Shown in pieces: positions 935 through 37,378 of a DNA stretch of 37,378 nt. This stretch comes from a virus (taxonomy: Duplodnaviria; Heunggongvirae; Uroviricota; Caudoviricetes). Where the stretch lies: the IMG/VR virus record IMGVR_UViG_2667527994_000015; one strand, given 5' to 3'. The notes beneath the pieces were generated by a model that saw only the letters and a program-made list of their open reading frames with translations, was not told the DNA's origin and made no database searches. Positions within the stretch are counted from its first letter, which is position 1. Every line of letters starts with the position of its first letter. The position numbers and the translations under genes are program-made.

Positions 935-2620
935 GTGAATATAAACGTCGCCGAATTGTTAAATGGGAATTACATTCTGTTATTATTTGTGGTCCTCGCG
1001 CTTGGGCTATGTCTCGGAAAGTTACGACTTGGTTCGATCCAACTGGGTAATTCCATTGGCGTTTTAGTCGTATCGCTGTTATTAGGCCAACAACATTTCA
1101 GCATTAACACCGATGCGCTTAATCTTGGCTTTATGCTGTTTATTTTCTGCGTCGGGGTCGAAGCCGGACCGAACTTTTTTTCCATTTTTTTTCGCGATGG
1201 GAAAAATTACCTAATGTTAGCACTGGTGATGGTTGGCAGTGCGCTGGTGATCGCCTTAGGGTTAGGTAAGCTGTTTGGCTGGGATATTGGCCTGACGGCC
1301 GGTATGTTAGCAGGCTCTATGACGTCGACACCGGTTCTGGTCGGTGCTGGCGATACACTGCATCATTCCGGCATGGAAAGCAGGCAGCTCTCACTGGCAC
1401 TGGATAATCTGAGCCTCGGGTATGCCTTAACCTATTTAATCGGTCTGGTGAGTTTGATTGTTGGTGCGCGTTACTTGCCGAAATTGCAGCATCAGGACTT
1501 ACAGACCAGCGCCCAGCAAATCGCCCGCGAACGTGGCCTGGACACTGATGCCAACCGTAAGGTTTATTTACCGGTGATCCGCGCCTATCGCGTCGGCCCG
1601 GAGCTGGTGGCCTGGACCGACGGCAAAAATCTGCGTGAACTGGGTATTTATCGACAAACCGGCTGCTACATTGAACGTATTCGACGTAACGGGATTCTGG
1701 CAAATCCAGACGGTGATGCCGTGCTACAAATGGGCGATGAAATAGCGTTGGTAGGCTATCCCGACGCCCATGCCCGACTCGATCCCAGCTTCCGTAACGG
1801 TAAAGAAGTTTTCGATCGTGACCTTCTCGACATGCGTATCGTCACTGAAGAAGTGGTCGTTAAAAACCATAACGCTGTAGGTAAACGTCTCGCACAACTG
1901 AAGTTGACCGATCACGGTTGCTTCCTTAACCGCGTCATTCGTAGCCAGATTGAGATGCCGATAGATGACAACGTCGTGCTTAACAAAGGTGACGTTTTAC
2001 AAGTCAGCGGTGATGCCCGTCGCGTAAAAACCATCGCCGATCGCATCGGCTTTATCTCGATTCACAGCCAGGTCACTGACCTGCTGGCATTTTGCGCCTT
2101 CTTTGTTATTGGGCTGATGATCGGGATGATCACCTTCCAGTTCAGCACATTCAGTTTCGGCATGGGGAACGCTGCCGGGTTGTTATTCGCCGGAATTATG
2201 CTGGGCTTTATGCGTGCTAACCACCCGACCTTCGGTTACATTCCGCAAGGTGCATTAAGCATGGTGAAAGAGTTCGGCTTGATGGTGTTTATGGCAGGCG
2301 TTGGTCTGAGCGCCGGTAGCGGTATTAATAACGGCCTGGGCGCGATTGGCGGTCAGATGTTGATTGCCGGATTAATTGTCAGTCTTGTGCCCGTGGTTAT
2401 CTGTTTCTTGTTCGGTGCTTATGTATTGCGAATGAACCGCGCACTGTTGTTCGGCGCAATGATGGGCGCACGCACCTGCGCGCCGGCAATGGAGATCATC
2501 AGTGATACAGCTCGCAGTAACATCCCTGCGCTGGGCTATGCGGGCACCTACGCAATCGCCAACGTCCTGCTGACGCTGGCAGGGACAATCATCGTCATGG
2601 TATGGCCAGGATTAGGATAA
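935..2620 (+). CDS. ybjL: Putative transporter YbjL (AAE-family membrane protein with central TrkA-C-like soluble domains)
   Basis: 561-aa ORF starting with GTG (MNINVAELL...), hydrophobic N- and C-terminal halves flanking a soluble middle; matches E. coli YbjL from memory. Confidence 0.9.
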
Positions 2621-4747: not shown

Positions 4748-7700
4748 GCGTCGTATCCCCCCTGATCGCTGTAGTTACTCCTGGCTTTTGCCTTCAGCCT
4801 GCGCTCACGTTCATCAAGCTGACGTGCCACCTCCCGCGCAATATCCTGCGCACTTTGTCCTGGCTGCGTCTGAATGATGATCTGCGTCGGTGCCTCAATC
4901 CGCTGAACGGGCGGCACAGTGGCTGCACGACTCGCCATCGCTTCGCCGCCTTTCGCGGGAAGTGCCAAAGGGTGCAACGGTGGAAGCTCTGCTGGCGCGG
5001 CAGCAACGCCCATCATTCCGGCAACAACGGCAGCCAGTGCAGCTGTATTTCTCCGGCTGGTCACATTTGCCGGGCCGTTAACAATTTCCGGCCCGTTTTC
5101 ACCGACGATGCCAAACTGCCCGCGCGGGATATACCCGCCGCTGTCATACATCCCCGCAAAGCCATATCCCCATGACGGAAAACCACCCGATGGCATCATC
5201 ACTTTACCGTCTGCATTCACCGTCGCAGGTTGCTGACGCGTCACGCTTTCCGGCAGTTTCGCCTTTGCAGCTTCTTTACTGACAATGCCGAGTTTATCCA
5301 GCAACCAGGAAACACCGGATTTCAGGGAGTCCAGCGGATGCATGACCATATTCAGCCCTTCCGCCAGTGCCTCCCCGAATCGTCGCCCCATTGCCGCTGC
5401 GCTCTGCAGCTCGGCAGAGGTCGACTTAACAGGCGTCAGCAGATTAGTAAACCAGCCCCACAGCGCCTGTACTTTGTCGCCAATCCACTGAAACACAGGC
5501 TTAAGTGGTTCGAATGCAGCACTGATGGGACCTGCCGCCGCTTTGAATCCTTCCACCACGCCACCGAGAAATGCGGTGATGGGTTGCCAGTATTTCCAGA
5601 TAACCAGCGCCACGCCTGCCAGTGCAGTAACCACAAGACCTATTGGACTGAGCAGAGCACCTAACAGACCAGATATGGCATACAGGGCAACGCGCAGCAT
5701 CGCCAGCGGACCGGATGCCAGCACACGAAGCACCGCGCCTGCGGCAGCCAGTCCACCGCGCAGTACCACCAGAGGATTCATAAACATCACAGCAACAGCA
5801 CGTAAACCGGATAATCCAGACCGCAATAGTGCAACCGGCGCACCTGCTACAGTTTTCAGGACATTCCCCGTCAGTGATGCCGTGCGACGCAAAGACGACA
5901 ACGGCGCAGTAAGTAAACCCGCTGCGTTGCCCGATGAAGCAAGCCCGCGTCGCAGCAGTGCCAGTGGTGCGCCAGCCAGCCAGGACAACGCGCTGCTGGT
6001 TCGGGTTACTGCTGCCGTAACGGAAGGTAACGTTTTGATACCCAACACAGAGAATCCCAGACGGATGACTGCCAGCGGCCCCAGCACTGCAGCCAGCGCC
6101 ACCGCTAAGGTGCCGAGGCCTACGGTAACCGCAGCCACAATAGCCGCTACTTTCATCAGTGTGCCTGTCAGTTCCGGGTTAGCTTCCACCCAGCGGCGCA
6201 ACGCCCCCGTAATGCTTTTCACCGTGTACAGAATATCCATCAGCGGTTGGCGCAGCGTTTCGCCCAGGCTGCTGAAGGTGTTCTGCGCTCCGGTTTTGAC
6301 CAGCAACCACTGAGCAGAAAGTGAGTCTTTGTTGATGTCGGATTCTTTCTGCATGGAACCGAGCGCATCATTGCCCGCTGTCAGTTTTAGCTGGCGCTGT
6401 AGTTCCGGCAGGTTGTTTGCCAGTTTCGCTGCGTCATCGCCAAACTCTTTACCAAACAACATGGTCATGGCAGACAGGCGCTTATCCTGCGGCAGTGCGT
6501 TCACCTTCTCCAGCACACGCTGGATAGTTCCCATCGCATCCTTCGTCATCTGCTTTTCAATCACTTCAGGATTGAGTTTCAGCAGATTCATCCCTTCAAA
6601 GAAACTCTTGCTTTGCATGGTGGCAATGGACAATTCACGCACCATCGCGTTTGCTGCACTGGCTGCAACCTCCGGCGCAGCGCCCAGTGTCAGGAAGGTG
6701 GAACCCAGCGCCGCCGCTTTACGATAATCCAGACGATCAGCCACACCGCCCAGGCGTTGCATGACATCGATGATGTCTGCCCCTTTCGACATGGCGTTAT
6801 CATCCAGATAGTTCAGCGCATCACCGAGCTGTTCAATATTGCGTGTAGGGATTTTGTAGAGCTGGGCGATTTTCCCCAGACTTTCTGACAGTTCATCCGC
6901 TGGCAGCTCAAAAGCTGTTGCCGCCTTTGCTGCCGTACTGGCAAAGGCCAAAAGGTCACGTTTCTGGTCTTCCCAGCTGTCGTCAGGGTTTGCGACGTTC
7001 ATGCGCGCACCACCTTCAACCAGTGCGGCGAAGTCCACAGCACCATTTTCCATCGGTAACTGTTCGCTGGCAGCCTTGATGGCATCCTGCATTTCATAAA
7101 AACGTGCAGTACGGTTTCCATTATCATCACGCAGACCATTGACCTGCTTTGCCACACCTTTCATGGCATCTTCCATGCTGGTATAGCTTTTTACTGCCGC
7201 CATCACTGGTGCGCCCATTGCCAGCCCTGCAGCCGTGGTGGTGGCTCCGGCACCTGCAATACGATCACGCACCTCCAGTGAACGGGCATAACTGGCACGC
7301 GCCGCATTCATCCTGCGCTGAGCTTCCCCCAGTCGCTTCAGCCGCGCCTCCTGTTTCGACAATTCCTGGTTATAACGTGATGTTTCACGGGCTAAACGGG
7401 CAGTTGCTCCCGCATCATCTTTCGCAGAAATTCCCGCCCGGTACAGTTCTGCACGCACAAGCGCCGTTTGCTTCTGCAAATATTTTTGTTGTTCTTCCAG
7501 GCGTTGGACTGCCAGCCTTTGCCGACCTAAAGCCACAAGGTGCCGTTGTGATGGTTGTTCCATCGACTCCAGCTCACAGCTAAGCAAATTAGCCTTCTGT
7601 CTGGCATAGTTCAGCCTGTCGCCTAACTTCTTGTTATCGGCCTGCAGCTTGCGAAATTTTTCCAGGCTGTTACCCGCCTGATTGAGTTGCTTTAATGCGT

Positions 7701-15203: not shown

Positions 15204-15510
15204 CGTTATTCCGCCGCCCGGTCAGCTCCACCACCATAGAACCGTCAAAGTTGCTGTTGATGGTGATGGAATCCAGCGTCAGCCGTGGCTCCCAGCGACT
15301 CAGCGCCACATACACTGCCGACATGACCTGCAGGCGTAATGCCGGATTTTGTGGCTGATCTATCAGTGCCGACAGTAGGGAACCATATTCCCGACGGGCA
15401 ATGCGGCTACCCTGCGGCGTCAGCAGAATGTCCCGCACCGACTGGCGCAGATGGTCAATATCAGTAATGACTTTGCCGCTGGTATTGTTCATCCCGCTAT
15501 AAAGCGTCAT
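15151..15510 (-). CDS. W: Baseplate protein gpW
   Basis: 119-aa ORF between V and J; P2 gpW-like size and position. Confidence 0.85.
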   Translation of the reverse strand: MTLYSGMNNTSGKVITDIDHLRQSVRDILLTPQGSRIARREYGSLLSALIDQPQNPALRLQVMSAVYVALSRWEPRLTLDSITINSNFDGSMVVELTGRRNNGVPVSLSVSTGAENSSD

Positions 15511-16085
15511 ACCGGGCCTCCGGTTGTGTCGCCGCCTTTCAGGACGCCAGTATGCTGATGTGCATCAACCACAATTCCGTTAGAACTCATTGCACCGCCG
15601 CCCTGGGTAACACCACCATTGATCACTACTTCGCTGTTAATACGCGTGCGGTCAGCCTCCAGCACAAACTCACTGGTTTTCAGGGTGATGTTGTCGGCAG
15701 CCTCAATGACCATGGATTTGATGCCCCTGACATACCAGCGCCCGGTTGCGGGTTCGTATTCAAACCAGCCACCGTCAGGATGTTCTGTCACGCAGGCGTC
15801 CGCCGACGTCGAAGGTGGCGCGAACTGATTCGAATAGACAGCGGGCAACGCAAAGGCGGTCTCCAGATTGCCGCCCAGACTCAGCAGCACCACCTGCTCA
15901 CCTTCCGATGGTCGCCACCATGTCCGGGCATTTCCGGCACGCAGCGTCAGCCAACTGATCCAGTTAGTTTCAAGCTCGCCTGTTTTCACCCGGCAAAGCC
16001 AGTTCTCCTTGTCCACTTCGGTGACTACCCCTGTGCGGATCAGGTTGGTGATAAGGCGCATGATTTCGGTTAATTGTGCGTTCAT
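15507..16085 (-). CDS. V: Baseplate spike/hub protein gpV
   Basis: Start set at the internal ATG (MNAQLTEIMRLITNLIRTG...), which aligns with the P2 gpV N-terminus from memory; the ORF track extends to an upstream GTG at 16187 that I consider spurious. Confidence 0.8.
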   Translation of the reverse strand: MNAQLTEIMRLITNLIRTGVVTEVDKENWLCRVKTGELETNWISWLTLRAGNARTWWRPSEGEQVVLLSLGGNLETAFALPAVYSNQFAPPSTSADACVTEHPDGGWFEYEPATGRWYVRGIKSMVIEAADNITLKTSEFVLEADRTRINSEVVINGGVTQGGGAMSSNGIVVDAHQHTGVLKGGDTTGGPV

Positions 16086-16131
16086 ATGGATATAGTTAAT
16101 TAAAAGAAAGCGGCTTTCCTTTAGTATTGTT

Positions 16132-16169: not shown

Positions 16170-17459
16170 ATGAAGAAACAAACACACGAAGTTTTTGGTA
16201 TTTCACCAACGATTCTTGCTGATTCATATGTAGACAGAGGAAATCTTGATAAGGAAATCAGTAGAAAATTACGCCGACCAATACATCTCGCCTTAAGAGG
16301 GGAATCCAAATGTGGTAAGTCATGGTTAAGACAAAAGAACATACCTAATGCTATTGTTGTACAATGCAGATTAAAGACAACCGTTTTAGATATATATATA
16401 GATATTCTATCTCAATTAGGTATAAGCCTTGTGCTAGAGAGAACCGAAAAAGATACAATTAAAGGCGTAATGGAGGGCTCTGCTGCAGGAGGCATTGGTC
16501 TTATAGCAAAACTAAAGGTTAAATTTGGACTTGAGACCTCTGAAGAGGAGGTAATAAAAAAAGGAAATGTTGGTCAAGATATTAATGATTTGAGATTTAT
16601 TGCAGAAATAATTAACGAAGCAGGAAGAAAAGTAGTTATTGAAGATTTTCACTACTTAAACACTCGTGAACGACAAATATTTGCTTATGACTTAAAGGCG
16701 CTTTGGGATTATGGTTGTTTTTTCGTAATCATTGGTGTTTGGACAAAAACAAACCTACTAATTTATTTGAATTCTGACCTTGGTTCTCGCATAGAAGAAA
16801 TTCCCATATCATGGTCTAGAGCCGATCTTGAACAAGTAATAATAAGTGGATCAGAAACTTTAAAAGTTAAGTTCTCAGATCATATAAAGAGATGCATCCT
16901 TGATGATTGCTATGGTAATGTTGGGATTTTACAACAACTAGCCTTAAACATTCTTGACGAGACAGGAATTGATGAGGAATGTACAACATTAACGATGTTA
17001 GATGATCAAGAAAAATTCGTTGATGCAGCCATGAAATATGCTGAACAATTAAATTCTCGATATCAAAAATTTGCTAAAGATATATCATCAGGAATACGTA
17101 AAAGAACAGAAACCACTGGCATTTATGCTCATGCCATGGCTGTAATAATGGACTCATCCGATAAAGAACTCATTCAAGGATTAGAGTTAGATACCATTTT
17201 TAAAATTGCGTCAAGAAGACAAAGTCGAATATTAAAAGGGAATCTGCGAACTGTACTTCAAAAAATTGAAGAGTTACAGGTTGATAGTGACGATAGAGGG
17301 TTAGTTCTTTCCTACAATGATGCAACTGATGAGGTCACTGCTATCGACAGAACCATTTTAATTTATCGAAAATATGTAACCATAAAATGGCCATGGGAGG
17401 ATCTGATTAACGAAGCAAAGGACAGCTATGGTGAGCAGAGTAGAATTTTTACCAATTGA
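16170..17459 (+). CDS. Hypothetical P-loop NTPase (accessory gene, antisense to late operons)
   Basis: 429-aa ORF from ATG 16170 with GTGAGG SD; Walker A GESKCGKS and Walker B-like VVIEDF; visibly AT-rich codon usage unlike flanking phage genes; sits between S and V. Confidence 0.7.
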   Translation: MKKQTHEVFGISPTILADSYVDRGNLDKEISRKLRRPIHLALRGESKCGKSWLRQKNIPNAIVVQCRLKTTVLDIYIDILSQLGISLVLERTEKDTIKGVMEGSAAGGIGLIAKLKVKFGLETSEEEVIKKGNVGQDINDLRFIAEIINEAGRKVVIEDFHYLNTRERQIFAYDLKALWDYGCFFVIIGVWTKTNLLIYLNSDLGSRIEEIPISWSRADLEQVIISGSETLKVKFSDHIKRCILDDCYGNVGILQQLALNILDETGIDEECTTLTMLDDQEKFVDAAMKYAEQLNSRYQKFAKDISSGIRKRTETTGIYAHAMAVIMDSSDKELIQGLELDTIFKIASRRQSRILKGNLRTVLQKIEELQVDSDDRGLVLSYNDATDEVTAIDRTILIYRKYVTIKWPWEDLINEAKDSYGEQSRIFTN

Positions 17460-17505: not shown

Positions 17506-17952
17506 TCACCCCGCCAGCCATTGCAGAATCATGTCGCGGGTCATTGCCTCAACATCATCATTTACACCCAGCAGGCGGCGCTCTACGTAACGGACCTCCG
17601 GTCCTTTGCGACTGACGCGATCACGCAGGCCGTAATGGTGAACACGGGCAATACGCTGCACCTTGCCTTCAAACTGTACGCTGGCAGAATCGGCGCTGGC
17701 GGCAGTTTTCAGGTATTTTGTGGTGCGCAGCTTTGCAAACATCTGACGTTTGATGCGCCCCTTCTTGCTGCGTGCTGTTACCCTGCGCGGTTCATAACTG
17801 CTGCCATCTGGATTGCGCTGCATCCTGATATTCTGCTGCTGTGTCCGGCGCAGTTCCTGCGCCAGCTGGCGCATCATGCGGCTTCTCGTGGCTGGTTCCA
17901 GATTCGCCAGCAAGGCACTCAGCCAGTCGTCCACCTTCTGTAGTTCAGCCAC
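17506..17952 (-). CDS. S: Tail completion protein gpS
   Basis: 148-aa ORF downstream of R with overlapping codons; P2 order. Confidence 0.85.
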   Translation of the reverse strand: MAELQKVDDWLSALLANLEPATRSRMMRQLAQELRRTQQQNIRMQRNPDGSSYEPRRVTARSKKGRIKRQMFAKLRTTKYLKTAASADSASVQFEGKVQRIARVHHYGLRDRVSRKGPEVRYVERRLLGVNDDVEAMTRDMILQWLAG

Positions 17953-23455: not shown

Positions 23456-25222
23456 ATGAACACCACACTGACACCCGCAGATCTCGATCCCCGTCGGCAG
23501 GCCATGCTGCTGTACTTTCAGGGATACCGCGTCGCCCGCATTGCTGAAATGCTGGGCGAGAAAGTTGCAACCGTTCACAGCTGGAAAAAACGCGACAAGT
23601 GGGGTGACTATGGGCCGCTGGATCAGATGCAGCTCACCACCGCCGCACGCTACTGCCAGCTCATTATGAAGGAGCACAAAGAAGGGAAAGATTTCAAAGA
23701 GATTGACCTGCTGGCGCGCCAGTCGGAGCGCCACGCGCGGATCGGCAAGTTTAACAATGGCGGCAACGAAGCCGACTTAAACCCTAACGTCGCCAACCGC
23801 AACAAAGGCCCACGCCGTCAGCCGGAAAAGAATGTTTTCACCGATGAACAGATTGAGAAGCTGGAAGAAATCTTCCATTCCTCCATGTTCAACTACCAGC
23901 GCCACTGGTGGGAAGCCGGAAAAACCAACCGCATCCGCAACCTGCTGAAGTCACGCCAGATCGGCGCAACCTTCTATTTTGCCCGTGAAGCCCTGATTGA
24001 CGCCCTGCTGACCGGACGTAACCAGATTTTCCTTTCCGCCAGCAAGGCACAAGCCCACGTCTTTAAGCAGTACATCATCGACTTCGCCAAAGAAGTGGAG
24101 GTGGAGCTGAAAGGTGATCCGATGGTGCTTCCTAACGGTGCCACGCTTTACTTCCTCGGCACCAATGCCCGCACTGCCCAGAGTTATCACGGCAACCTGT
24201 ATCTGGATGAATATTTCTGGATACCGAAATTCCAGGAGCTGCGCAAAGTGGCTTCCGGTATGGCTATTCACAAAAAATGGCGACAAACCTATTTTTCCAC
24301 GCCATCCAGCCTGACACACAGTGCTTATCCGTTCTGGTCCGGTGCACTGTTCAACCGAGGGCGCAACAAAGCCGATAAGGTGGACATCGACCTGTCCCAC
24401 AGCAATCTGGCCCCCGGCCTGCTGTGCGCAGACGGGCAGTACCGCCAGATAGTCACTGTGGAAGATGCGGTGCGCGGCGGCTGTAACCTGTTCGACCTCG
24501 ACCAGTTGCGCATGGAGTACAGCCCGGACGAATACCAGAACCTGCTGATGTGTGAGTTCGTGGACGATCTCGCGTCTGTGTTCCCGCTCAGCGAGCTGCA
24601 GGCGTGCATGGTGGACAGTTGGGAAGTCTGGACCGACTTTCATGCACTGGCCCTGCGCCCGTTTGGCTGGCGCGAAGTGTGGATCGGATATGACCCGGCG
24701 AAAGGTACGCAGAACGGCGACAGCGCCGGATGCGTGGTGGTGGCGCCGCCAGCCGTGCCGGGCGGTAAGTTCCGCATTCTTGAGCGTCACCAGTGGCGCG
24801 GAATGGACTTCCGCGCCCAGGCTGATGCCATCAAAAAACTGACCGAACAGTACAACGTGACCTATATCGGTATCGACTCAACCGGCGTTGGTCACGGGGT
24901 TTACGAGAACGTGAAAGCGTTTTTTCCTGCCGTCCGGGAGTTTGTCTACAACCCCAACGTTAAAAACGCCCTGGTACTCAAGGCCTACGACATTATCAGC
25001 CACCGCCGTCTGGAGTTTGACGCCGGACACACCGACATAGCGCAGTCCTTTATGGCAATCCGTCGCGCCACCACCGCCAGTGGCAACCGCCCGACCTATG
25101 AAGCCAGCCGCAGCGAAGAAGCCAGCCACGCCGATCTGGCCTGGGCAACGATGCACGCACTGTTTAACGAACCGCTGCAGGGCGAATCCGCCAATACCAG
25201 CAATATTGTGGAGATTTTTTGA
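23456..25222 (+). CDS. P: Terminase ATPase (large) subunit gpP
   Basis: 588-aa ORF divergent from O and overlapping the portal gene start; P2 gpP-like size and position. Confidence 0.9.
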   Translation: MNTTLTPADLDPRRQAMLLYFQGYRVARIAEMLGEKVATVHSWKKRDKWGDYGPLDQMQLTTAARYCQLIMKEHKEGKDFKEIDLLARQSERHARIGKFNNGGNEADLNPNVANRNKGPRRQPEKNVFTDEQIEKLEEIFHSSMFNYQRHWWEAGKTNRIRNLLKSRQIGATFYFAREALIDALLTGRNQIFLSASKAQAHVFKQYIIDFAKEVEVELKGDPMVLPNGATLYFLGTNARTAQSYHGNLYLDEYFWIPKFQELRKVASGMAIHKKWRQTYFSTPSSLTHSAYPFWSGALFNRGRNKADKVDIDLSHSNLAPGLLCADGQYRQIVTVEDAVRGGCNLFDLDQLRMEYSPDEYQNLLMCEFVDDLASVFPLSELQACMVDSWEVWTDFHALALRPFGWREVWIGYDPAKGTQNGDSAGCVVVAPPAVPGGKFRILERHQWRGMDFRAQADAIKKLTEQYNVTYIGIDSTGVGHGVYENVKAFFPAVREFVYNPNVKNALVLKAYDIISHRRLEFDAGHTDIAQSFMAIRRATTASGNRPTYEASRSEEASHADLAWATMHALFNEPLQGESANTSNIVEIF

Positions 25223-26256
25223 TGGGAAAGAGTAAGAAGAACCGCGCTGCGGCGACGAAACAGATCCAGCTTAAAAGTCAAACTACAGCCGAAGCATTCA
25301 GCTTCGGCGATCCCGTTCCTGTTCTGGACCGCCGAGAACTGCTGGATTATGTGGAATGCGTACAGATGGACCGCTGGTATGAACCGCCCGTCAGCTTTGA
25401 CGGACTGGCGCGCACCTTCCGCGCTGCCGTGCATCATAGTTCCCCGATTGCAGTAAAGTGCAACATTCTGACCAGCACCTACATCCCTCACCCGCTGCTC
25501 AGCCAGCAGGCTTTTTCGCGTTTTGTGCAGGACTATCTGGTATTTGGTAACGCCTACCTGGAGAAACGCACGAACCGCTTCGGTGAAGTTATCGCCCTTG
25601 AACCTGCCCTGGCAAAATACACCCGACGCGGGTTAGACCTGGATACCTACTGGTTTGTGCAATACGGTATGACCACGCAGCCATATCAGTTCACGAAAGG
25701 CAGCATCTTTCATCTGATGGAACCGGACATCAACCAGGAGATCTACGGCCTGCCCGGTTATCTTTCTGCTATTCCATCCGCCCTGCTCAACGAGTCTGCC
25801 ACGCTGTTCCGCCGCAAGTATTACATTAACGGCAGTCATGCAGGCTTCATCATGTATATGACCGATGCCGCGCAGAACCAGGAGGATGTGAACAACCTCC
25901 GCAACGCGATGAAAAGCGCCAAAGGTCCAGGCAACTTCCGCAACCTGTTTATGTACTCGCCTAACGGCAAAAAGGACGGGCTTCAGATTATCCCGTTGTC
26001 AGAGGTCGCAGCGAAGGATGAGTTTTTGAATATCAAGAACGTGAGCCGGGATGACATGATGGCGGCGCATCGTGTGCCACCGCAAATGATGGGGATTATG
26101 CCTAATAATGTCGGGGGGTTTGGGGATGTGGAGAAGGCCAGCCGCGTCTTTGTGCGAAATGAGCTAACACCACTGCAAAAGCATATACAAGAAGTAAATA
26201 AATGGCTTGGTAAAGTTATTATAAAATTCGAATCATATAGCTTTCCCACACAATAA
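25219..26256 (+). CDS. Q: Portal protein gpQ
   Basis: 345-aa ORF downstream of P, reading toward cos; the last ~30 codons are AT-rich. Confidence 0.9.
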   Translation: MMGKSKKNRAAATKQIQLKSQTTAEAFSFGDPVPVLDRRELLDYVECVQMDRWYEPPVSFDGLARTFRAAVHHSSPIAVKCNILTSTYIPHPLLSQQAFSRFVQDYLVFGNAYLEKRTNRFGEVIALEPALAKYTRRGLDLDTYWFVQYGMTTQPYQFTKGSIFHLMEPDINQEIYGLPGYLSAIPSALLNESATLFRRKYYINGSHAGFIMYMTDAAQNQEDVNNLRNAMKSAKGPGNFRNLFMYSPNGKKDGLQIIPLSEVAAKDEFLNIKNVSRDDMMAAHRVPPQMMGIMPNNVGGFGDVEKASRVFVRNELTPLQKHIQEVNKWLGKVIIKFESYSFPTQ

Positions 26257-26290
26257 AACAAAGGCCGTTCATATATGAACGGCCTTTGTT
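26257..26290. terminator. Palindromic hairpin between convergent Q and the accessory gene (bidirectional terminator candidate)
   Basis: Near-perfect palindrome acaaaggccgttcatat/atatgaacggcctttgt between the two stop codons, followed by T-run on the plus strand. Confidence 0.5.
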
Positions 26291-26292
26291 AT

Positions 26293-27327
26293 CTATACCA
26301 AAGTTTTTTTAATCGCTCTCAATGTTGTCATTAAATTTTCGCCATACGGTGTTAAAGTCCAATAAGTACCTTTATCTTTAACACTTCTACTCTTTTCACT
26401 TTTAATAATTAACCCAAGCGCCCTAAACTGCACTTTTATTGTTTGGAAATCAGAATTAGATACTTTTAAAGATAATAAATTCATATCTTTAAAATCCTCA
26501 TAGATGATATCTTGAACTGCATTTCGCACACAGTTATTTAAAGCACTATATAGCTTATCATCCACTATCTCATCTATCATCAAAGGCGAAACATATGAAA
26601 AAATATCGTTCCAGCTTAATTTGACCTTATCGGTATATTCTTCACCATTATGTCTCCATTCTGTAGGCGACACACAGAATTCATAATCCAATTCAAAAAG
26701 CTCATCTCCTTGAGATAGTTTTTCTGCACCTGCAGGCGCTTCAGTCATACTTGATACAAGTTGACTTTCAAGCTCCTCAATTCGCCTTTTTAATTTCAAT
26801 ATTTCCTTTGCATCACCATCATTAGTTACTAAATTTCCTTTAACCCACCCAATTGCAGGACATTCTTTAATTAGTCTAATCAAACTTCTGCTAACCTGGC
26901 TACCTAACTCTGCAGGAGACTCCCAAAAACGACATAATTTTGTTTTAACTAGCTCTTCGAAAGCCTTTAGTTTTTCTACGCCTTCAGGGTTTGACTCACA
27001 ACGTTTTGCGGGGAGGTTACTTTTATCTTTATGAATAAAACCTATAACTGGCTTACCAGTTTCCAAAGCATAACGATACTCCATTTCTGTATAGCTTATT
27101 CCATCAGGACCAATTGAACCATAACGCCCTGCCAAGATAACAATATAATAATCACTATCGTCAATTATTTTTTTTATTAAACTCCACTGATCACTATTTG
27201 TTGCTGGAAATAATTCCATTCCTGCTGGCATACAATCAAGCTCCAGCAGTGCTTGCATTACTTCCTGTCTTTCTTCTTCAAGATCAGCAAAAGTTGAACT
27301 AACAAAAACCTGATATCTTTTATCCAT
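26293..27327 (-). CDS. Hypothetical protein with DUF4062-like N-terminal domain (accessory gene between portal and cos)
   Basis: 344-aa ORF; N-terminus VFVSSTFADLEEERQ and YYIVILAGRYG fit my recollection of the DUF4062 consensus; central coiled-coil; AT-rich. Confidence 0.7.
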   Translation of the reverse strand: MDKRYQVFVSSTFADLEEERQEVMQALLELDCMPAGMELFPATNSDQWSLIKKIIDDSDYYIVILAGRYGSIGPDGISYTEMEYRYALETGKPVIGFIHKDKSNLPAKRCESNPEGVEKLKAFEELVKTKLCRFWESPAELGSQVSRSLIRLIKECPAIGWVKGNLVTNDGDAKEILKLKRRIEELESQLVSSMTEAPAGAEKLSQGDELFELDYEFCVSPTEWRHNGEEYTDKVKLSWNDIFSYVSPLMIDEIVDDKLYSALNNCVRNAVQDIIYEDFKDMNLLSLKVSNSDFQTIKVQFRALGLIIKSEKSRSVKDKGTYWTLTPYGENLMTTLRAIKKTLV

Positions 27328-27403
27328 TTGATGATTTCCACTGCACGTATAGATCTTTCAGGCGATTATATATACTTTTCTGAAAACTGTCAGTGAGCGC
27401 GCG

Positions 27404-27422
27404 CTCGTATCCCCGCCACGCC
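27404..27422 (-). other. Putative cos cohesive-end sequence
   Basis: Minus strand reads GGCGTGGCGGGGATACGAG, close to the 19-nt cohesive ends of 186/P2 (GGCG[T/A]GGCGGGGAAAGCA...) as I remember them; sits between Q and the old/tin-equivalent slot. Confidence 0.4.
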
Positions 27423-27460
27423 TGCCCGCTTTATGTAGTGGTTTTCATGCAGGTGCATGA

Positions 27461-27491
27461 CATAAGCAAAAGCCCGCCAGTTCTGGCGGGC
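27461..27491 (-). terminator. Intrinsic terminator of the two-gene accessory operon
   Basis: Minus strand gcccgccag-aa-ctggcgggc followed by ttttgctt, just downstream of the 4-TM gene. Confidence 0.5.
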
Positions 27492-27636
27492 CTCAGCAAA
27501 AACGATCCTAAAACGATCATGCGGATTCATGCAGCATAGACATGCAAAGCTTGTTAGAACGGTGATTCCCATGTTAAAGGAGGCTTACTCTTGTTGAGGT
27601 TAAACATCCACAGTAACTCCTGCCAATACGAACACT

Positions 27637-28173
27637 TTATTCATCATAGTGTTCTAATTTCGCTTTTGCTAAACGTCCATGTAAGTGATTAACAAAATGT
27701 AAATTATTCAAAATCAGGCTCATAACGCATTTTAATTGCATCCAGCTAATAAAGTAAATGAAGAAAATACCAATGTATTTAAACAAGTCTTTATTAGCTT
27801 GATAAACAGGTAATGCATAAAACACTGCCTTAACCAAAAAGAAAATTAGAATCCCAGCCATAACACAAGCAGATGTGATTATTGTATAAACTAATTTCTC
27901 TATTCTTGGTGAGTCATGCTCATTTTTTATATAACTTACATCATCCTTAACAATACTATTCATTGCATTCGGATATAAAAAACCGACCCATAAACCGACA
28001 ATAGTGAATATAGATGCTGAAATATTTATAAGCGCACCTAAAATATCTTTTGCATCATTATAGGAAAAACTTTTGAACGAAAAATAGCTTATAACGCAGC
28101 ACAAAACAACAGCAACAAAATTAATCGCCTGCTGTTTTGCAACTGTTATTATCAAACCTTCCGTTTCTGTCAT
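27637..28173 (-). CDS. Small integral membrane protein with four predicted TM helices (accessory operon gene 2)
   Basis: 178-aa ORF with four hydrophobic stretches; GGAAGG SD; its ATG lies 1 nt after the upstream gene's TGA (TGAtATG). Confidence 0.7.
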   Translation of the reverse strand: MTETEGLIITVAKQQAINFVAVVLCCVISYFSFKSFSYNDAKDILGALINISASIFTIVGLWVGFLYPNAMNSIVKDDVSYIKNEHDSPRIEKLVYTIITSACVMAGILIFFLVKAVFYALPVYQANKDLFKYIGIFFIYFISWMQLKCVMSLILNNLHFVNHLHGRLAKAKLEHYDE

Positions 28174-28174
28174 A

Positions 28175-29374
28175 TCAACCTTCCGCTATCTTTTTTGTGG
28201 ATGCAGCTTCAGATTCTTTAATGGATGCTTCCTCAGCATATTTTACTTCACTAATCAAATCATCACGAATTTTGTTTATTTCATCCAGTAAAAAACGCGC
28301 TGAATAATGCTCAAACCCATCCGAATCTTGAAGAGGAAGTTTAGTCCTGGCTACATAGCTACTGAGCCAAACCGGATTAGCACGATCAGCCAGTAAAAAA
28401 CCCACATCCCATTCAGACTCTTCACCTCTCATTGAGAAGAGATTTCGAAGCTCATCCGATGATGGTGCACCGTCAATTTTAACTTCAATTTTACGAGGCT
28501 GCTCCAAAACAGGAGGTGCCCCAATAAGCTTATTACGCTTTTCTTCACCCACCAGAGATGCTAAAGCTACACTTGTTAGCTTCAACAATGGTTGCCTTGT
28601 GTCATTTTGGTTTATTACCGTTGTATCCTTTATCAATGTGTGTGTAATTTTATGCCTTAACCTTTCAAAGTTTTCCTCAGCGGCTTTAAGTTTTGTTTCT
28701 TCCAATACAAACTTGAAGATACAGTTTATCTCATTTTTGCCATCTTTATATTGAAACTTAGTATTGTAGACATCCACACAACGACCAGGGGTCTTAGCTG
28801 ATTCAAATGTACGCTTAGATTTCGTTCTTTTACCTAACTTACTATTATTATTTACATGCTGAATGAAGTATTGTGCGAAGAGATAAGTATCAGCGAAAGA
28901 ATGGGGGAATCTGATTGATGCTATTTTATTCAACTCAGGAATAATCCAGTAATAGCAGGGTTCACCCCAAATTATTTTATCCTCACCATGTTCTCTTCCC
29001 GCCCTAATGGTTCCTTTACTATCACCACTTACTTTAGAACCGACCTTAATACCATGTATTCCGTTACCGTTCCCCACTTCACGGTATAAAACAATTACTG
29101 CATCTTTAGTCTGGCTGTCCCTCACAAGGCCTCGACTGTAAACTCGTGTTCGCAGAGGTTGTTCTTCTTTATTCCATGGGAGAGTCTGCTCAAAATTTTT
29201 ATCCTTGAGCCACCCTTCTAAATCGTCCAAAACCCCCATAAGATCGCCGAATTTATAATCAAGCTCTTCGGGTTTATTCTTTAACCGATAAAACCCACAA
29301 GCAGTAATATCAAAGAAGGTGATTGAGCCGTTGTCCACTAAAACTCCTTTTTGCCAAAGCAACACACGATACAT
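28175..29374 (-). CDS. Hypothetical 399-aa protein (accessory operon gene 1)
   Basis: ATG-initiated ORF with no motif I can recognise; AT-rich; translationally coupled to the 4-TM gene; no clear SD. Confidence 0.65.
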   Translation of the reverse strand: MYRVLLWQKGVLVDNGSITFFDITACGFYRLKNKPEELDYKFGDLMGVLDDLEGWLKDKNFEQTLPWNKEEQPLRTRVYSRGLVRDSQTKDAVIVLYREVGNGNGIHGIKVGSKVSGDSKGTIRAGREHGEDKIIWGEPCYYWIIPELNKIASIRFPHSFADTYLFAQYFIQHVNNNSKLGKRTKSKRTFESAKTPGRCVDVYNTKFQYKDGKNEINCIFKFVLEETKLKAAEENFERLRHKITHTLIKDTTVINQNDTRQPLLKLTSVALASLVGEEKRNKLIGAPPVLEQPRKIEVKIDGAPSSDELRNLFSMRGEESEWDVGFLLADRANPVWLSSYVARTKLPLQDSDGFEHYSARFLLDEINKIRDDLISEVKYAEEASIKESEAASTKKIAEG

Positions 29375-29580: not shown

Positions 29581-29814
29581 CTAGTGTAACCAGCTGTCGT
29601 CCTCCCAGACCTTCTGCATAATTTTCATCACTTGTTTTCTTTCTTCGTCCAGTTGCAGTCCGGTCAGTTCCACACCGTTAGAGCTACCTTTGCGGATACG
29701 AATTACCGTTTTGGGATACAGGGGGCGCAGATTGCGGTAAAGCTCGGACTCAAGGGCGTCCAGTGTAGACTGGCTAAACTTCTGCTCTTTATCGATCATT
29801 ATTTCAATGCGCAT
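29581..29814 (-). CDS. dinI: DinI-like protein
   Basis: 77-aa product from the internal ATG (MRIEIMIDKEQ...) with GAGGTG SD; resembles E. coli DinI; downstream of a LexA box. Confidence 0.7.
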   Translation of the reverse strand: MRIEIMIDKEQKFSQSTLDALESELYRNLRPLYPKTVIRIRKGSSNGVELTGLQLDEERKQVMKIMQKVWEDDSWLH

Positions 29815-29824
29815 AAAAGTCACC

Positions 29825-30013
29825 TCAGCTGATGACATCCATTGAGCGGTTGTATTCATGGGTTCTGATTTTTGCCATGAGTTCATCTGTCAGTTCAGAA
29901 ACCCACTGCAGGGCCAGCCCCTTCTCTTCATCACTACACTCACTAGCCGCTACAAGCTTAAGAAAAAAATCAATGCGCTGGAGCTTCAAAGACTCCAAAA
30001 AATAGTCCTGCAT
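29825..30013 (-). CDS. Small SOS-controlled protein, possible Tum-like antirepressor
   Basis: 62-aa ORF with GGAGG SD 4 nt before the ATG and a perfect LexA box about 45 nt upstream; position equals the 186 tum locus; the homology itself is not established. Confidence 0.45.
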   Translation of the reverse strand: MQDYFLESLKLQRIDFFLKLVAASECSDEEKGLALQWVSELTDELMAKIRTHEYNRSMDVIS

Positions 30014-30165: not shown

Positions 30166-32580
30166 TTAATACAGATCCCGCCACTTATCATCTTCCTGCA
30201 AACGCTGGTTCCGATAGAAGATACGCAGGCCTGCTCCTGACGGAATACTGCCACCGCGAAGGAGTAAATCGACCTCTTTCTCGCTGCCATCAAATCCTCT
30301 GGACTTCAGTTCATAGACGAGCTGCTGTCGCTGATGATCTGTAATTCGCTGTTTGTAGTCTCTACGCCGTTTCGGTTTCACCAGGCGTAACCTTGCAGCC
30401 AGTTCCCGGCGCTCTTTTTTGTTCATACTGTGCAGGTAATCGTGCAATTCCTTGTCATCCATGCGGGTGATATCCGTTCTGGTATCCCCATCAGCTGATT
30501 TGTCTTTCCCTTGTTGGTACAAATTTTCAGCAAGGGGACAGTTATTGCCACGAGTCCAAGGGGCGCAAGCGCCCTGGTCGGCTGCCGCCTCCTGAACGTC
30601 AACGGCTTTACGAACCATTTTCCACTTCACTGCATGAGTGCAGATCTTGCCCTCTGCAATGGGTGACCAGATGCCATAAATACGAATGCCGTGATCGCCA
30701 TAGGCGGTCGGCTCTTCGTTGATTTCATAAGCGGTTCTGATGAGGTGATATTTACGGGGAACCAGTACGCCGCCCTGCTTCATGATGTAGGTGGCAAAAC
30801 AACCAGCATCAGCAGCAGCCAGAATGGCATCAAGACGCGGGTTATCCAGTACCGGCGCACCTGCTTTTTTGTCACCCTGTTGCCTTGCCGCCTGACCAGC
30901 CAGCAAGCGAAGTTCACGGTAAGCCTGACGCCCCGGAATACCAAAGAAGCGGAATTGCTGAACACGATGCAGAGACGCCCAGGCATTCACGTATTCAGCG
31001 TTATCACGCAGAGATTTACCCGTTTCCTTGCTGATCTCGCCAGCCAGACCACGACCGTCAATGTTCTTACTGATATATTTCGCGATGTAGCTTGTCGGCG
31101 TTCCTTTGCGCGGGTTAATCAACTCAGACTTAAAGCGCGGCCCAGTGTTATTGCCCAGCTCCTCGCGGTCTTCACGGATGGCAAACTTACGCAGTAATGC
31201 AGTGATGGCACGGCGGTCTTTTTTGCGCATGAAACACAACAGGTGCCAGTGAACTGTGCCATCATGATGCGGCTCAGCCACCCGCACGCCATACCAGCGC
31301 AACCCGGCTTTGTGCATCGCCTTACGAAATGCAGCAAACATGCCGACCAGATAATCGCTGCTTTGTCTTACCGTCGCGTTTGTCCAGGTCGGGTTTGGTC
31401 TGCCGTTATTTAGCGTGGAATGGAAACGCGACGGACAGGTGATAGTGTAGAAAACGGCGCAGTCACCGCGCATTTCCGCGATAAGCTCCAGACCTTTAAC
31501 ACAGGCCATCATCTCATTGCGGCGATGCGCAGGGTTGCTGCTGCTGGCGTTTACCACATCCTCCATGTCCAGCGTGTCGCCGTCTTCGTTCACCAGTTCA
31601 TGAGAACGGAAAAACTCCAGCGACTTACGGCGCTGCTCACGTTTATGCATCACGGCTTCATAGCTGACATAAGGAGATGCTTTTTTGCTGACCAGGCAAA
31701 CAGCGCGCAACTGCTCTTCCCGCCATTCGCAACGCATCTTCCATAATTTCCGATACCACCAGTCGGCGCACAACATACGCGCCAGCGAACCCGGAATGAG
31801 TTCATAGGGCACGGGTTTACGGCGGTTTCTTTTCCGACGGAGTTGCTCAAACGCAGGTGGGATGACATCCAGACGCAGGGTTTCCGCTGCCACCTTTTCC
31901 CATGTCTTGCGGATTTCTTCTGGCTTAACGTCATCGGTGGCATACAAATCACCACAAGCGGCATCAAGGCACATACTCATATGCGCAGCTACCAGGGTGG
32001 ACAGGCGTTTCACCTGATCCTGACTCATTTCAGGCAGGATCAGCAGGCCGTCCAGCCCTTCATGGCTTGCCATAAAGCGAAAAGATGCAGATAGCTGACT
32101 GTCGCGTACATGCTCCAGTCGTTCCAGACATGGCTTAATCGTCTCACGTAAATAGCGGGAATAAGCCTTTGGCCTGCCCAGGCTGCTGAAGTATTCAATA
32201 CGTTGCATCAGCGGCTTGCTGATATGGGAAGGCTGGGCGTTGACGTCCGCCAGAATGACCATGTCTGAATTAAAACGCTGCTGCTCATGCGCCAGCTTTG
32301 CCCGGCTAATGAGCTTATCCTGCTCCATTTCGCGCTGGACAGGATCACGTGATTCATTAAAGAAATAACGCTCCCAGACCTGATCACTCAGTGCCTCGCG
32401 GCGCAACTGTTCCTGCTCGTTATCGGCAGCGTACAGAGTGATCAGGTTTGAAAGCGTAGAAACCGGCGCAACTTCCGCCGGGTCCAGATAAGGGTTAATG
32501 GCCTTTTTCGGGCTGTTCCATGAGAATGCTGCGGCAGCCTCGTTAAAGCCGCAGCAGTTGTTCATATCGGCATGACTCAT
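30166..32580 (-). CDS. A: Replication initiation protein gpA (HUH rolling-circle endonuclease)
   Basis: 804-aa ORF; HUH motif in TVHWHLLCF and tyrosine motif YIAKYISK; overlaps the dam gene upstream. Confidence 0.9.
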
Positions 32581-36137: not shown

Positions 36138-36325
36138 CTTTTGCTTTTATATCTGCGCCTAAAATAAAAATGAGCCACAGGTTAACCGCAAAAGTTACAT
36201 GATCACATAGCAAAAAGAATAGCCTACTTCATTATGGCTTCAGTGAGATGTATGGTCGCAGGATTTCATACATTGACACTGGTTATACATACAGTAAAAA
36301 TGCTCTCTATTGGAGGGCATTTTTT

Positions 36326-37378
36326 ATGGCTGTACGAAAACTCACCACAGGAAAATGGCTTTGCGAATGTTACCCCGCCGGACGTAGTGGGCGTCGTGTG
36401 CGTAAACAATTCGCCACCAAAGGCGAAGCACTGGCTTTTGAGCGTCACACGATGGAAGAAACCGAAGCAAAGCCCTGGCTAGGTGAATCAGTGGATCGTC
36501 GAACACTGAAAGACGTGGTTGAGCTATGGTTCAAACTACATGGTAAATCACTGACTGCTGGGCAGCATGTCTATGACAAATTGCTGCTGATGGTTGACGC
36601 TCTGGGCAATCCCCTTGCAACTGATCTCACCTCTAAAATGTTTGCCCACTATCGAGATAAACGCCTGACAGGTGAGATCTACTTCAGCGAGAAATGGAAG
36701 AAAGGAGCAAGCCCGGTCACCATTAACCTGGAGCAAAGCTATCTAAGTAGTGTTTTTAGCGAACTATCCCGCCTGGGCGAATGGTCGTATCCGAACCCAC
36801 TGGAGAACATGCGAAAATTCACCATCGCAGAAAAAGAGATGGCATGGCTTACCCATGAGCAGATTGTTGAATTACTGGCTGATTGCAAACGTCAGGACCC
36901 AATTCTGGCACTGGTAGTTAAGATATGCTTAAGCACAGGCGCACGCTGGCGAGAAGCCGTAAATCTTACTCGTTCACAGGTGACCAAATACCGAATTACC
37001 TTTGTAAGAACGAAGGGGAAGAAAAACAGAAGCATCCCTATCAGTAAAGAGCTTTACGAAGAGATCATGGCGCTTGATGGGTTCAATTTCTTCACAGACT
37101 GCTATTTTCAATTTTTATCCGTGATGGAAAAAACGTCTATCGTGCTCCCTCGCGGTCAACTCACACACGTTCTGCGCCATACGTTTGCGGCGCACTTCAT
37201 GATGTCGGGTGGAAACATTCTGGCCTTACAAAAAATTCTCGGACACCACGATATAAAAATGACTATGCGTTACGCACATCTGGCACCGGATCATCTGGAA
37301 ACGGCGCTCCGTTTCAATCCTCTGGCAACGCTGCCAAGTGGCGACAAAGTGGCGGCAGCGGTTGGCATTACCCCGTAA
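36326..37378 (+). CDS. int: Tyrosine integrase (186/P2 family)
   Basis: Start MAVRKLTTGKWLCECYPAGRSGRRVRKQFATKGEALAFE with GGAGGG SD; C-terminal HVLRHTFA...MTMRYAHL motifs; resembles 186 Int; last codons overlap attL core. Confidence 0.9.
   Translation: MAVRKLTTGKWLCECYPAGRSGRRVRKQFATKGEALAFERHTMEETEAKPWLGESVDRRTLKDVVELWFKLHGKSLTAGQHVYDKLLLMVDALGNPLATDLTSKMFAHYRDKRLTGEIYFSEKWKKGASPVTINLEQSYLSSVFSELSRLGEWSYPNPLENMRKFTIAEKEMAWLTHEQIVELLADCKRQDPILALVVKICLSTGARWREAVNLTRSQVTKYRITFVRTKGKKNRSIPISKELYEEIMALDGFNFFTDCYFQFLSVMEKTSIVLPRGQLTHVLRHTFAAHFMMSGGNILALQKILGHHDIKMTMRYAHLAPDHLETALRFNPLATLPSGDKVAAAVGITP
37339..37360. repeat. attL core (tggcgacaaaGtggcggcagcg)
   Basis: Direct repeat of 2834..2855 with one mismatch, inside the 3' end of int. 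Confidence 0.6.

Follow-up and report, generated by a model that had tools for sequence, protein, structure and literature searches.

The window analyzed here, which is the whole 37,378-nt stretch of IMG/VR virus record IMGVR_UViG_2667527994_000015, is an almost complete P2/186-like prophage with genes for a CI-type repressor, CII (CP76), an integrase and DinI, as well as replication gene A, genes O, P and Q of the capsid, and tail genes. Between its portal gene Q and its cos site lies a 344-amino-acid (aa) open reading frame (ORF) on the minus strand (26293..27327), which starts with ATG and carries the motifs VFVSSTFADLEEER and YYIVILAGRYG. This swz-like gene, referred to below as swz, is best read as prophage cargo that encodes a single-gene abortive-infection defence of the Swarozyc (Swz) family, a reading to which we assign a probability of about 0.82. 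The gene order is Q (25222-26256), swz, cos (27404-27422), PDC-M18, the DinI gene (29581-29886) and an ORF of the size of gpA (30166-32580), the identity of which is backed by Phage_GPA in syntenic loci. The product of Q, which is a plus-strand homologue of P2 gpQ and 186 W, is also 344 aa long; it matches Phage_portal (PF04860) with E=8.8e-18, and the gene is 94.6% identical in nucleotide (nt) sequence to the portal gene of phage Cartapus. Because Q is on the plus strand and ends at 26256, while swz is on the minus strand, the two genes converge. The GC content is 0.37-0.40 over 26001-27500 versus 0.52-0.58 in the P and Q genes. An earlier note made from the letters alone (the original prediction) had described an AT-rich 344-aa ORF convergent to Q, with a palindromic terminator between them and cos upstream, and this description was borne out by the GC content, by the 15-bp stem of the terminator and by the position of cos.

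A bidirectional rho-independent terminator common to Q and swz is predicted at 26257..26290, where a perfect palindrome forms the stem, closed by a 4-nt loop. Its folding free energies (dG) are -24.1 and -24.0 kcal/mol on the two strands, with z-scores of -9.9 and -5.7. At the other end of the gene a near-consensus sigma-70 promoter (CTGACA, 17 nt, TATAAT; 27365..27393, minus strand; 11/12 match) begins at the first cassette base beside cos. In the 37-kb window only 2 sigma-70 sites are as good as the swz promoter, and when the 76-bp spacer was shuffled 5000 times, 6 of the shuffled sequences had one. On the far side of the cohesive-end core, a GC-rich hairpin followed by UUUUGCUU (27466..27497, minus strand; dG -23.6 kcal/mol, z-score -3.8) is, by its putative function, the probable terminator of the upstream operon in slot 2 of the hotspot described below; if this terminator is real, swz is a separate transcription unit. 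With its own near-consensus promoter adjoining cos and the terminator shared with Q, swz is an autonomous unit and is therefore probably expressed in the lysogen.

Membership in the Swarozyc family

The DUF4062 domain proposed from the N-terminal motifs was found by Pfam (PF13271) as a match of residues 6-87 to profile positions 1-82 of 82, that is over the full length of the profile, with E=1.5e-29 and 102 bits against a cut-off of 24.7. A phmmer search against the PDB aligned residues 1-341 of the 344 to KpSwz (entries 10wc, 11cq and 11cv) with E=6.6e-69. KpSwz from Klebsiella pneumoniae is the founder of Swarozyc, a single-gene abortive-infection system described in 2026 (Osinski et al., bioRxiv 10.64898/2026.05.01.722283). 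The two proteins are 38% identical overall, with the TIR-like domain (51%) well ahead of the linker and stalk (31%) and of the AUX domain (25%). The N-terminus of the window protein coincides exactly with the start of the active KpSwz 16-C construct.

The published work showed that KpSwz assembles head to head into oligomers, which helical stalks hold in an autoinhibited state, and that its AUX domain, which consists of a winged/helix-turn-helix (HTH) core and a "hairpin anchor", binds the dodecameric portal of phage Bas14. The portal binding switches on the NAD+ glycohydrolase (NADase), which results in NAD+ depletion and abortive infection, and the protection requires both E97 and AUX. The dimer interface of KpSwz is of the AB/AEB and not of the AE/BE kind, and the enzyme hydrolyses NAD+ to nicotinamide and plain ADP-ribose, not to a signalling nucleotide. 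E. coli was protected from BASEL phages by KpSwz and also by a homologue given as "Enterobacteriaceae/E. coli", which conferred strong and broad protection (bioRxiv 10.64898/2026.05.01.722283).

The counterparts of these parts can be placed along swz. The TIR-like/DUF4062 catalytic domain (aa 1-160) is encoded by 26848..27327, and its putative catalytic glutamate E83 by a GAG codon at 27079-27081, all on the minus strand, as are the other segments of the gene. E83 aligns with KpSwz chain position 84, which corresponds to residue 97 and is an alanine in the E97A construct. E83, Q47 and W48 are invariant in 55 of 55 homologues, which are 58-75% identical and come from Enterobacter, Klebsiella, Burkholderia, Pseudomonas, Xanthomonas and others. 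The predicted stalk helix (aa 170-195; 26743..26820) is the counterpart of the KpSwz helical stalks, and the AUX (sensor) domain (aa 200-344; 26296..26730) by itself matches KpSwz chain residues 206-324 with E=3.6e-8. Within AUX, a hypervariable beta-hairpin (aa 210-238; 26614-26700) has the highest column entropy of any segment in the family, with 2.31 bits versus a mean of 0.62 bits for the TIR domain. At the hairpin tip W224, equivalent to KpSwz W238, is conserved, while R225 replaces Y239.

The AlphaFold2 (AF2) model of the protein, with a mean predicted local distance difference test (pLDDT) score of 80 and of about 90 in AUX, contains a TIR-like alpha/beta core, helix 170-195, beta-hairpin 210-238 and a helical/strand (winged) C-terminal core, and this layout agrees with the published description of KpSwz. 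A coiled-coil segment followed by a separate C-terminal domain had been proposed from the raw sequence, and the model has both, in the form of helix 170-195 and AUX; on the other hand, the C-terminal domain is not unassigned, as had been thought, but homologous to the AUX domain of KpSwz. The top Foldseek matches of the model were TIR domains (RPS4/RRS1, RPPT, SPARTA TIR-APAZ, TcpB and AbTir; entries 4c6t_D, with E=1.2e-4, and 7xoz were among them) and the nucleoside deoxyribosyltransferase (NDT)-like proteins BcmB and DNPH1, with probabilities of 0.96-1.00, of which those of TIR-APAZ were the lowest. Because the structure library used (PDB up to 2026-04-08) is older than the KpSwz entries, the fold search confirms "TIR-like" only and not KpSwz.

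The window protein and KpSwz are alike in being single-gene products with a DUF4062 TIR-like domain, a helical stalk and a C-terminal AUX domain, in keeping the catalytic glutamate and the hairpin tryptophan, in their length class (344 aa versus the ~326-aa KpSwz construct), and in their mobile-element or defence-island setting. They differ in the hairpin tip, which is WR and not WY in the window protein, in ~20 extra residues in its AUX helical region, and in the setting of its gene in the Q-cos slot of a P2/186-like prophage, whereas the word "prophage" occurs 0 times in the Swarozyc preprint. Membership of the window protein in the Swarozyc family, its domain layout and the conserved catalytic glutamate are thus shown at the level of sequence.

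Proteins combining DUF4062 with AUX domains were independently shown to be single-gene NAD+-depleting defences in the Evangelion preprint (Eva01-04; Ibarra-Chavez et al., bioRxiv 10.64898/2026.06.25.731849), which sets Swarozyc in a lineage apart from Eva01-04. The view of the original prediction that DUF4062 is a conflict-associated domain agrees with both preprints, as each reports defence proteins. The Evangelion systems resemble the window gene in the DUF4062 effector core with an essential, diversified AUX domain, and in being single genes on mobile elements that act by NAD+ depletion and abortive infection; their E-Y and Q/W motifs are matched by E83-Y84 and Q47-W48 of the window protein. 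The full-length match to KpSwz speaks for the Swarozyc lineage rather than for those of Eva01-04, with which the protein was compared by description. With the canonical TIR NADases (Thoeris ThsB, TIR-APAZ/SPARTA, AbTir and TIR-NLR/Avs) it shares the fold class, as judged by Foldseek, and these also use a glutamate-dependent NAD+ glycohydrolase as the abortive-infection effector, activated through oligomeric rearrangement. The Pfam TIR, TIR_2 and ThsB_TIR profiles, in contrast, gave no sequence match at E<=0.1, DUF4062 alone being reported, and the window gene has no partner genes; the likeness to the canonical TIR families, as far as the model goes, is at the fold level only.

An identical protein is titled [quoted passage not shown] at NCBI and is found on 609 contigs, including contigs of Escherichia, Salmonella, Klebsiella and Shigella. 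At each of ten sites inspected, its gene was located 36 bp from Q in a P2-like prophage. Carriers of swz are nevertheless few: among 5426 complete E. coli genomes 7 have it, and among the 77 close relatives from IMG/VR in which cos was mapped 3 do, so that the gene is not present at this site in all P2-like phages. A tblastn search of 50,697 deposited phage genomes found no close homologue; the sole phage matches were full-length, 23.5% identical, and came from two ~220-kb records of Acinetobacter phage MD-2021a (CAKLQH020000005.1 and CAKLQF020000005.1). A second, diverged DUF4062 lineage is present in E. coli LF82/NRG857c (NC_011993.1, 4466487-4466676), with ~71% nt identity over the N-terminal 190 nt only, and as far as examined it is not located at the P2 Q-cos slot.

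The gpA-gpQ hotspot and the swz cassette

The gpQ-gpA locus beside cos is the classic defence hotspot of P2, in which P2 itself carries old and tin (Rousset et al. 2022, PMC9122126; Nucleic Acids Research 2026, PMC13586616). Supplementary file 6 of Rousset et al. (2022) contains cluster 67, "DUF4062", with 63 occurrences and a sequence prefix identical to that of the window protein, and Table S of the same study holds the exact arrangement of the window, hyp+DinI+hyp+hyp+DUF4062 (PMC9122126). The locus between Q and DinI/gpA and its AT-rich, swappable cargo are thus common to P2 and the window. However, old and tin of P2 are located on the gpA side of cos, while in the window swz is located on the Q side and PDC-M18 on the gpA side. 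The portions of these papers that define the hotspot take gpA-gpQ as one unit, in which the sides of cos are not split, and a two-slot description was not found in these definitions, although figures or other papers may hold it (PMC9122126; PMC13586616).

The occupancy of the two sides was compared by script in 80 IMG/VR loci (L017-L096), namely those whose portals are closest to that of the window, with 93% aa identity or more, of which 77 had a mapped cos and 74 had the DinI or gpA anchor that was used to define slot occupancy. Matches in E. coli genomes were not used for this purpose, because their Q and cos pieces were split and many of them covered the cos island alone. The Q stop and the cos core were 166-3504 bp apart in the 77 loci with a mapped cos and 168-3504 bp apart in the 74 anchored ones. 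Slot 1, from Q to cos, was occupied in 73/74 loci; slot 2, from cos to DinI, was empty (207-208 bp) in 20/74, and both slots were filled in 53/74. Slot 1 contained 56 cargo ORFs with a length of 150 aa or more, every one of them convergent with Q. The slot-1 cargo comprised AbiU/AIPR, GmrSD, PIN_12, retron reverse transcriptases, TIR/SEFIR/ThsB, AAA_13 and DprA, as well as SieB, Schlafen, subtilase, Cap4-nuclease, HEC-06 and PDC-S59, a repertoire which matches that published for "the" P2 hotspot. The 1154-bp swz slot occurred with slot-2 contents of 2162 bp and 1327 bp, and PDC-M18 as slot-2 cargo was paired with swz, SieB or other/hypothetical genes (Rousset et al. 2022, Table S, and syntenic loci). 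In the two cassettes inspected, those of swz and of the DUF4145 gene of Cartapus, a promoter or promoter-like hexamers adjoin cos.

The C-terminal 21 aa of the portal (window 26190-26256) occurred as 56 distinct tails among the 80 loci, about one per cargo type, and all the tails retain an N-W-L/I…F..Y motif. These private tails indicate that the variable region of the hotspot starts inside the portal ORF. Our tentative picture, which we hold at slightly less than even odds, is that the hotspot consists of two independently assorting slots split by a cos island of ~150 bp, with Q-side cassettes that face Q and bring private last ~20 portal codons.

The portal stop is ~170 bp from cos in both P2 and 186, with the terminator alone in between, which agrees with the earlier statement that Q ends near cos in P2. 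Since slot 1 is filled in 73 of the 74 relatives, the empty slot 1 of P2 and 186 is the exception with respect to this 186-like lineage, and because the slot is a standing, occupied one, the "insertion" is better called one allele of a cassette site. The proposal that swz is cargo acquired between Q and cos thus agrees with the slot being empty in P2 and 186, but the notion of a one-off insertion had to be replaced by that of one cassette of a standing hotspot.

The boundaries of the cassette were defined by two comparisons. The homology to phages with other cargo, which were Cartapus (DUF4145), vB_EcoM-813R9 (Hypoth_Ymh) and Klebsiella phage ST437-OXA245phi4.1 (HTH gene), is lost inside Q at 26178-26243 and returns at 27394-27397, and the GC content drops from 0.60 to 0.36 near 26150. 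In the second comparison ten swz-bearing loci (L006-L015) were used. Where their P-Q backbone is intact, six loci share ~95% identity with the window, and L009 and L013 share 99.3-99.4%; over 25001-27700 L013 reaches 100%. Between 26080 and ~27432 all ten loci are 99.9-100% identical. The backbone shows its final polymorphism at 26079 in 8 of 9 loci, and over 26150-26256 the identity is 100% in 10 loci, while past ~27433 the identity in the cos island is 89.5-93.5%, L013 excepted. The end of homology, the GC drop and the near-identical block place the junction inside Q, where the original prediction had put it. The 3′ end of Q that moves with the cassette (26080..26256, plus strand), AT-rich from ~26150, encodes the private portal tail (…EVNKWLGKVIIKFESYSFPTQ), which occurs only with the 1154-bp cargo. 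It follows from the identity pattern of the ten loci that the moving unit reaches from the last ~60 Q codons through the terminator, swz and the swz promoter to the cos core, which it includes. The near-identical haplotype ends at ~27432-27452, which is ~10-30 bp past the cohesive-end core, and the position of this break suggests recombination at or beside cos. Exchange of the cassette by homologous recombination in Q on one side and by recombination at or beside cos on the other would fit these data.

The conserved cos island (27394..27546), only ~150 bp long, was delimited by homology to Cartapus, 813R9, ST437-OXA245phi4.1 and the ten swz loci, together with the P2 cos junction alignment. 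In these phages and in the swz loci the homology resumes at 27394-27397, and it ends at 27545-27557 in 813R9, ST437-OXA245phi4.1 and nine of the ten swz loci; the Cartapus record stops at 27450 and L013 is identical to past 27700. The first part of the island, 27394-27450, is identical in 57 of 57 positions to the annotated cos of Cartapus. The 19-nt cohesive end of P2 is GGCGAGGCGGGGAAAGCAC, and its counterpart in the window is GGCGTGGCGGGGATACGAG on the minus strand (27404-27422). The P2 cohesive end itself had no match even when up to 3 mismatches were allowed, because the local cos variant differs at more positions; cos was located instead through alignments with the P2 end junction and with the cos annotated in Cartapus. 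A 60-aa ORF at 27390-27572 on the minus strand was considered as a gene and judged to be probably spurious, as it has no family match and is located inside the conserved non-coding island. Some phage records list small ORFs of this kind under the label "hypothetical protein", as at 4956-5105 of the ST437-OXA245phi4.1 locus (L003).

Other features of the prophage were also noted. Across cos from swz, slot 2 contains the two-gene PADLOC candidate operon PDC-M18A/B (27637-29374, minus strand), which encodes PDC-M18A of 399 aa (28175-29374; E=5.9e-31) and PDC-M18B, a predicted membrane protein of 178 aa (27637-28173; E=2.7e-18). The DinI-family ORF (29581-29886, minus strand) was listed with 101 aa, and it probably starts at an internal ATG, because in syntenic loci DinI is annotated with 77 aa and the match to Pfam begins at residue 38. 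A second AT-rich island (GC 0.33-0.39; 16170-17459, plus strand) is located between the tail genes S (17506-17952) and V (~15507-16100). It holds a ~429-aa ORF on the strand opposite to the tail genes, which matches the PADLOC single-gene candidate PDC-S59 with E=1.7e-197 and has no Pfam match; PDC-S59 was also found as Q-cos slot cargo in sister phages. We take the position of this island to be that of orf30 of P2. The ends of the prophage fall within the window, with a host Asp-Al_Ex/TrkA_C permease gene (935-2620, plus strand) at one side, and the phage integrase gene (36248-37378, plus strand) at the other prophage end, where it runs off the window.

Trigger, rival explanations and self-tolerance

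By analogy to KpSwz, the N-terminal DUF4062 TIR-like domain would be an NAD+ glycohydrolase with E83 as its catalytic glutamate, which the helical stalk would keep autoinhibited in head-to-head oligomers. The C-terminal AUX domain would serve as the phage sensor by binding a structural protein of the infecting phage, which for KpSwz is the assembled portal dodecamer. This binding would realign the stalks and so activate the TIR-like domains, and the resulting NAD+ hydrolysis and abortive infection would protect the lysogen population, and hence the prophage. The NADase activity, the abortive infection, the expression in the lysogen and, above all, the trigger of this allele are inferred, and a portal would be the most likely trigger.

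Several observations weigh against this interpretation. The fold search with the AF2 model of AUX alone, which lost confidence in its last 35 residues, found nothing below E=0.1, so that the AUX assignment rests on sequence homology. A scan of the window protein with PADLOC v2.0 (2023) matched 0 families at E<=0.1; since that library predates Swarozyc and Evangelion, the result is no evidence against a defence role, and of the profile checks proposed at the outset the Pfam one found DUF4062 while the one against defence models did not find any. The E. coli homologue tested in the Swarozyc paper was given only as UniParc UPI0002A39D72; it may be the window protein, but because E. coli also has the other DUF4062 lineage, it could equally be the LF82-lineage protein, and the window protein cannot be assumed to be the one tested. 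The low identity of AUX (25%), the replacement of Y239 by R225 and the position of the hairpin as the most variable segment mean that the trigger may be no portal, or a portal of another kind, and the Eva01 lineage appears to sense replication-linked cues and not a portal (bioRxiv 10.64898/2026.06.25.731849). Finally, a phage that carries a portal sensor has to avoid setting it off with its own portal, which this interpretation must accommodate.

The data on AUX and on Eva01 raise the question of whether the same NADase effector could be coupled to a diverged AUX domain that senses a non-portal trigger, such as another structural protein or, as proposed for Eva01, a replication intermediate. 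The entropy of 2.31 bits in hairpin 210-238 and the arginine at the position of Y239 are in line with this idea, as is the plasmid-borne Eva01 of S. aureus, the phage escapers of which mapped to recombination and replication genes and not to the portal (bioRxiv 10.64898/2026.06.25.731849). On the other hand, AUX is still homologous over its full length to an AUX domain that binds a portal (E=3.6e-8), its predicted hairpin and helical core are laid out alike, and the hairpin tryptophan is conserved; the variability of the hairpin itself can be explained by the fact that a surface tracking diverse phage targets is expected to vary, as it would if the contact hairpin followed diverse portals. We consider a non-portal trigger unlikely on balance, though well worth keeping in mind. 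Much further from probable is that the enzyme, being TIR-like or nucleoside-deoxyribosyltransferase-like, serves the phage and not host defence, either in counter-defence against NAD-derived signals or in nucleotide metabolism during P2 growth. Its fold is common with the NDT-like hydrolases BcmB and DNPH1, and the gene, which is phage-borne, occupies the very end of the virion DNA and has its promoter ~10 bp away from the cos cut, a position that could allow transcription early after injection. Such a role is hard to reconcile with the full-length homology to a proven abortive-infection NADase defence, with the classical defence genes that sister phages hold in the Q-cos slot, with the dispensability of swz, which is absent from 74/77 close relatives and from P2 and 186, or with a sigma-70 promoter in place of a P2 late promoter context. 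A further reading is that swz is an inert passenger or a decaying remnant that has no current function; in its favour are the low GC content and the rarity of the gene in E. coli genomes, which fit a recent acquisition. We regard this as hardly credible, because the ORF is intact, the identical protein occurs on 609 contigs over four genera, the catalytic and core residues are all conserved, and the promoter and terminator are intact.

Under the preferred reading of swz as a Swarozyc-family defence gene that most likely senses a portal, its linkage to a portal gene means that the phage needs either a portal that is invisible to the sensor or late silencing of swz. The Bas14 portal (DUF4055 type, 506 aa) has no sequence similarity to the PF04860-type Q of this prophage, which makes simple non-recognition of its own portal plausible. 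More speculatively, swz could be damped by the convergent late P-Q transcription through the common terminator. The private portal tail was also considered as a swz-specific adaptation for self-tolerance, and this was rejected, as nearly every cargo type has its own tail.

The gene described here is already known, as the function and mechanism of its family were published in 2026, and the hotspot, with this exact protein catalogued in it, in 2022. The flagging of a DUF4062 gene from the raw sequence thus led to a genuine member of a defence family and added little that is new. The results tie the Swarozyc family explicitly to P2-like prophages, a setting which the Swarozyc preprint leaves undiscussed, and they provide a natural allele with a diverged sensor hairpin, which is useful for studies of specificity. 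The remaining interest lies in the two-slot cassette anatomy and in self-tolerance. The anatomy of the cassette, with its two slots, cos island, private portal tails and haplotype break past the cohesive-end core, is a substrate for testing how cargo is exchanged, and the position of swz poses the problem of how such a sensor of portals is tolerated by a phage whose own portal gene lies beside it.

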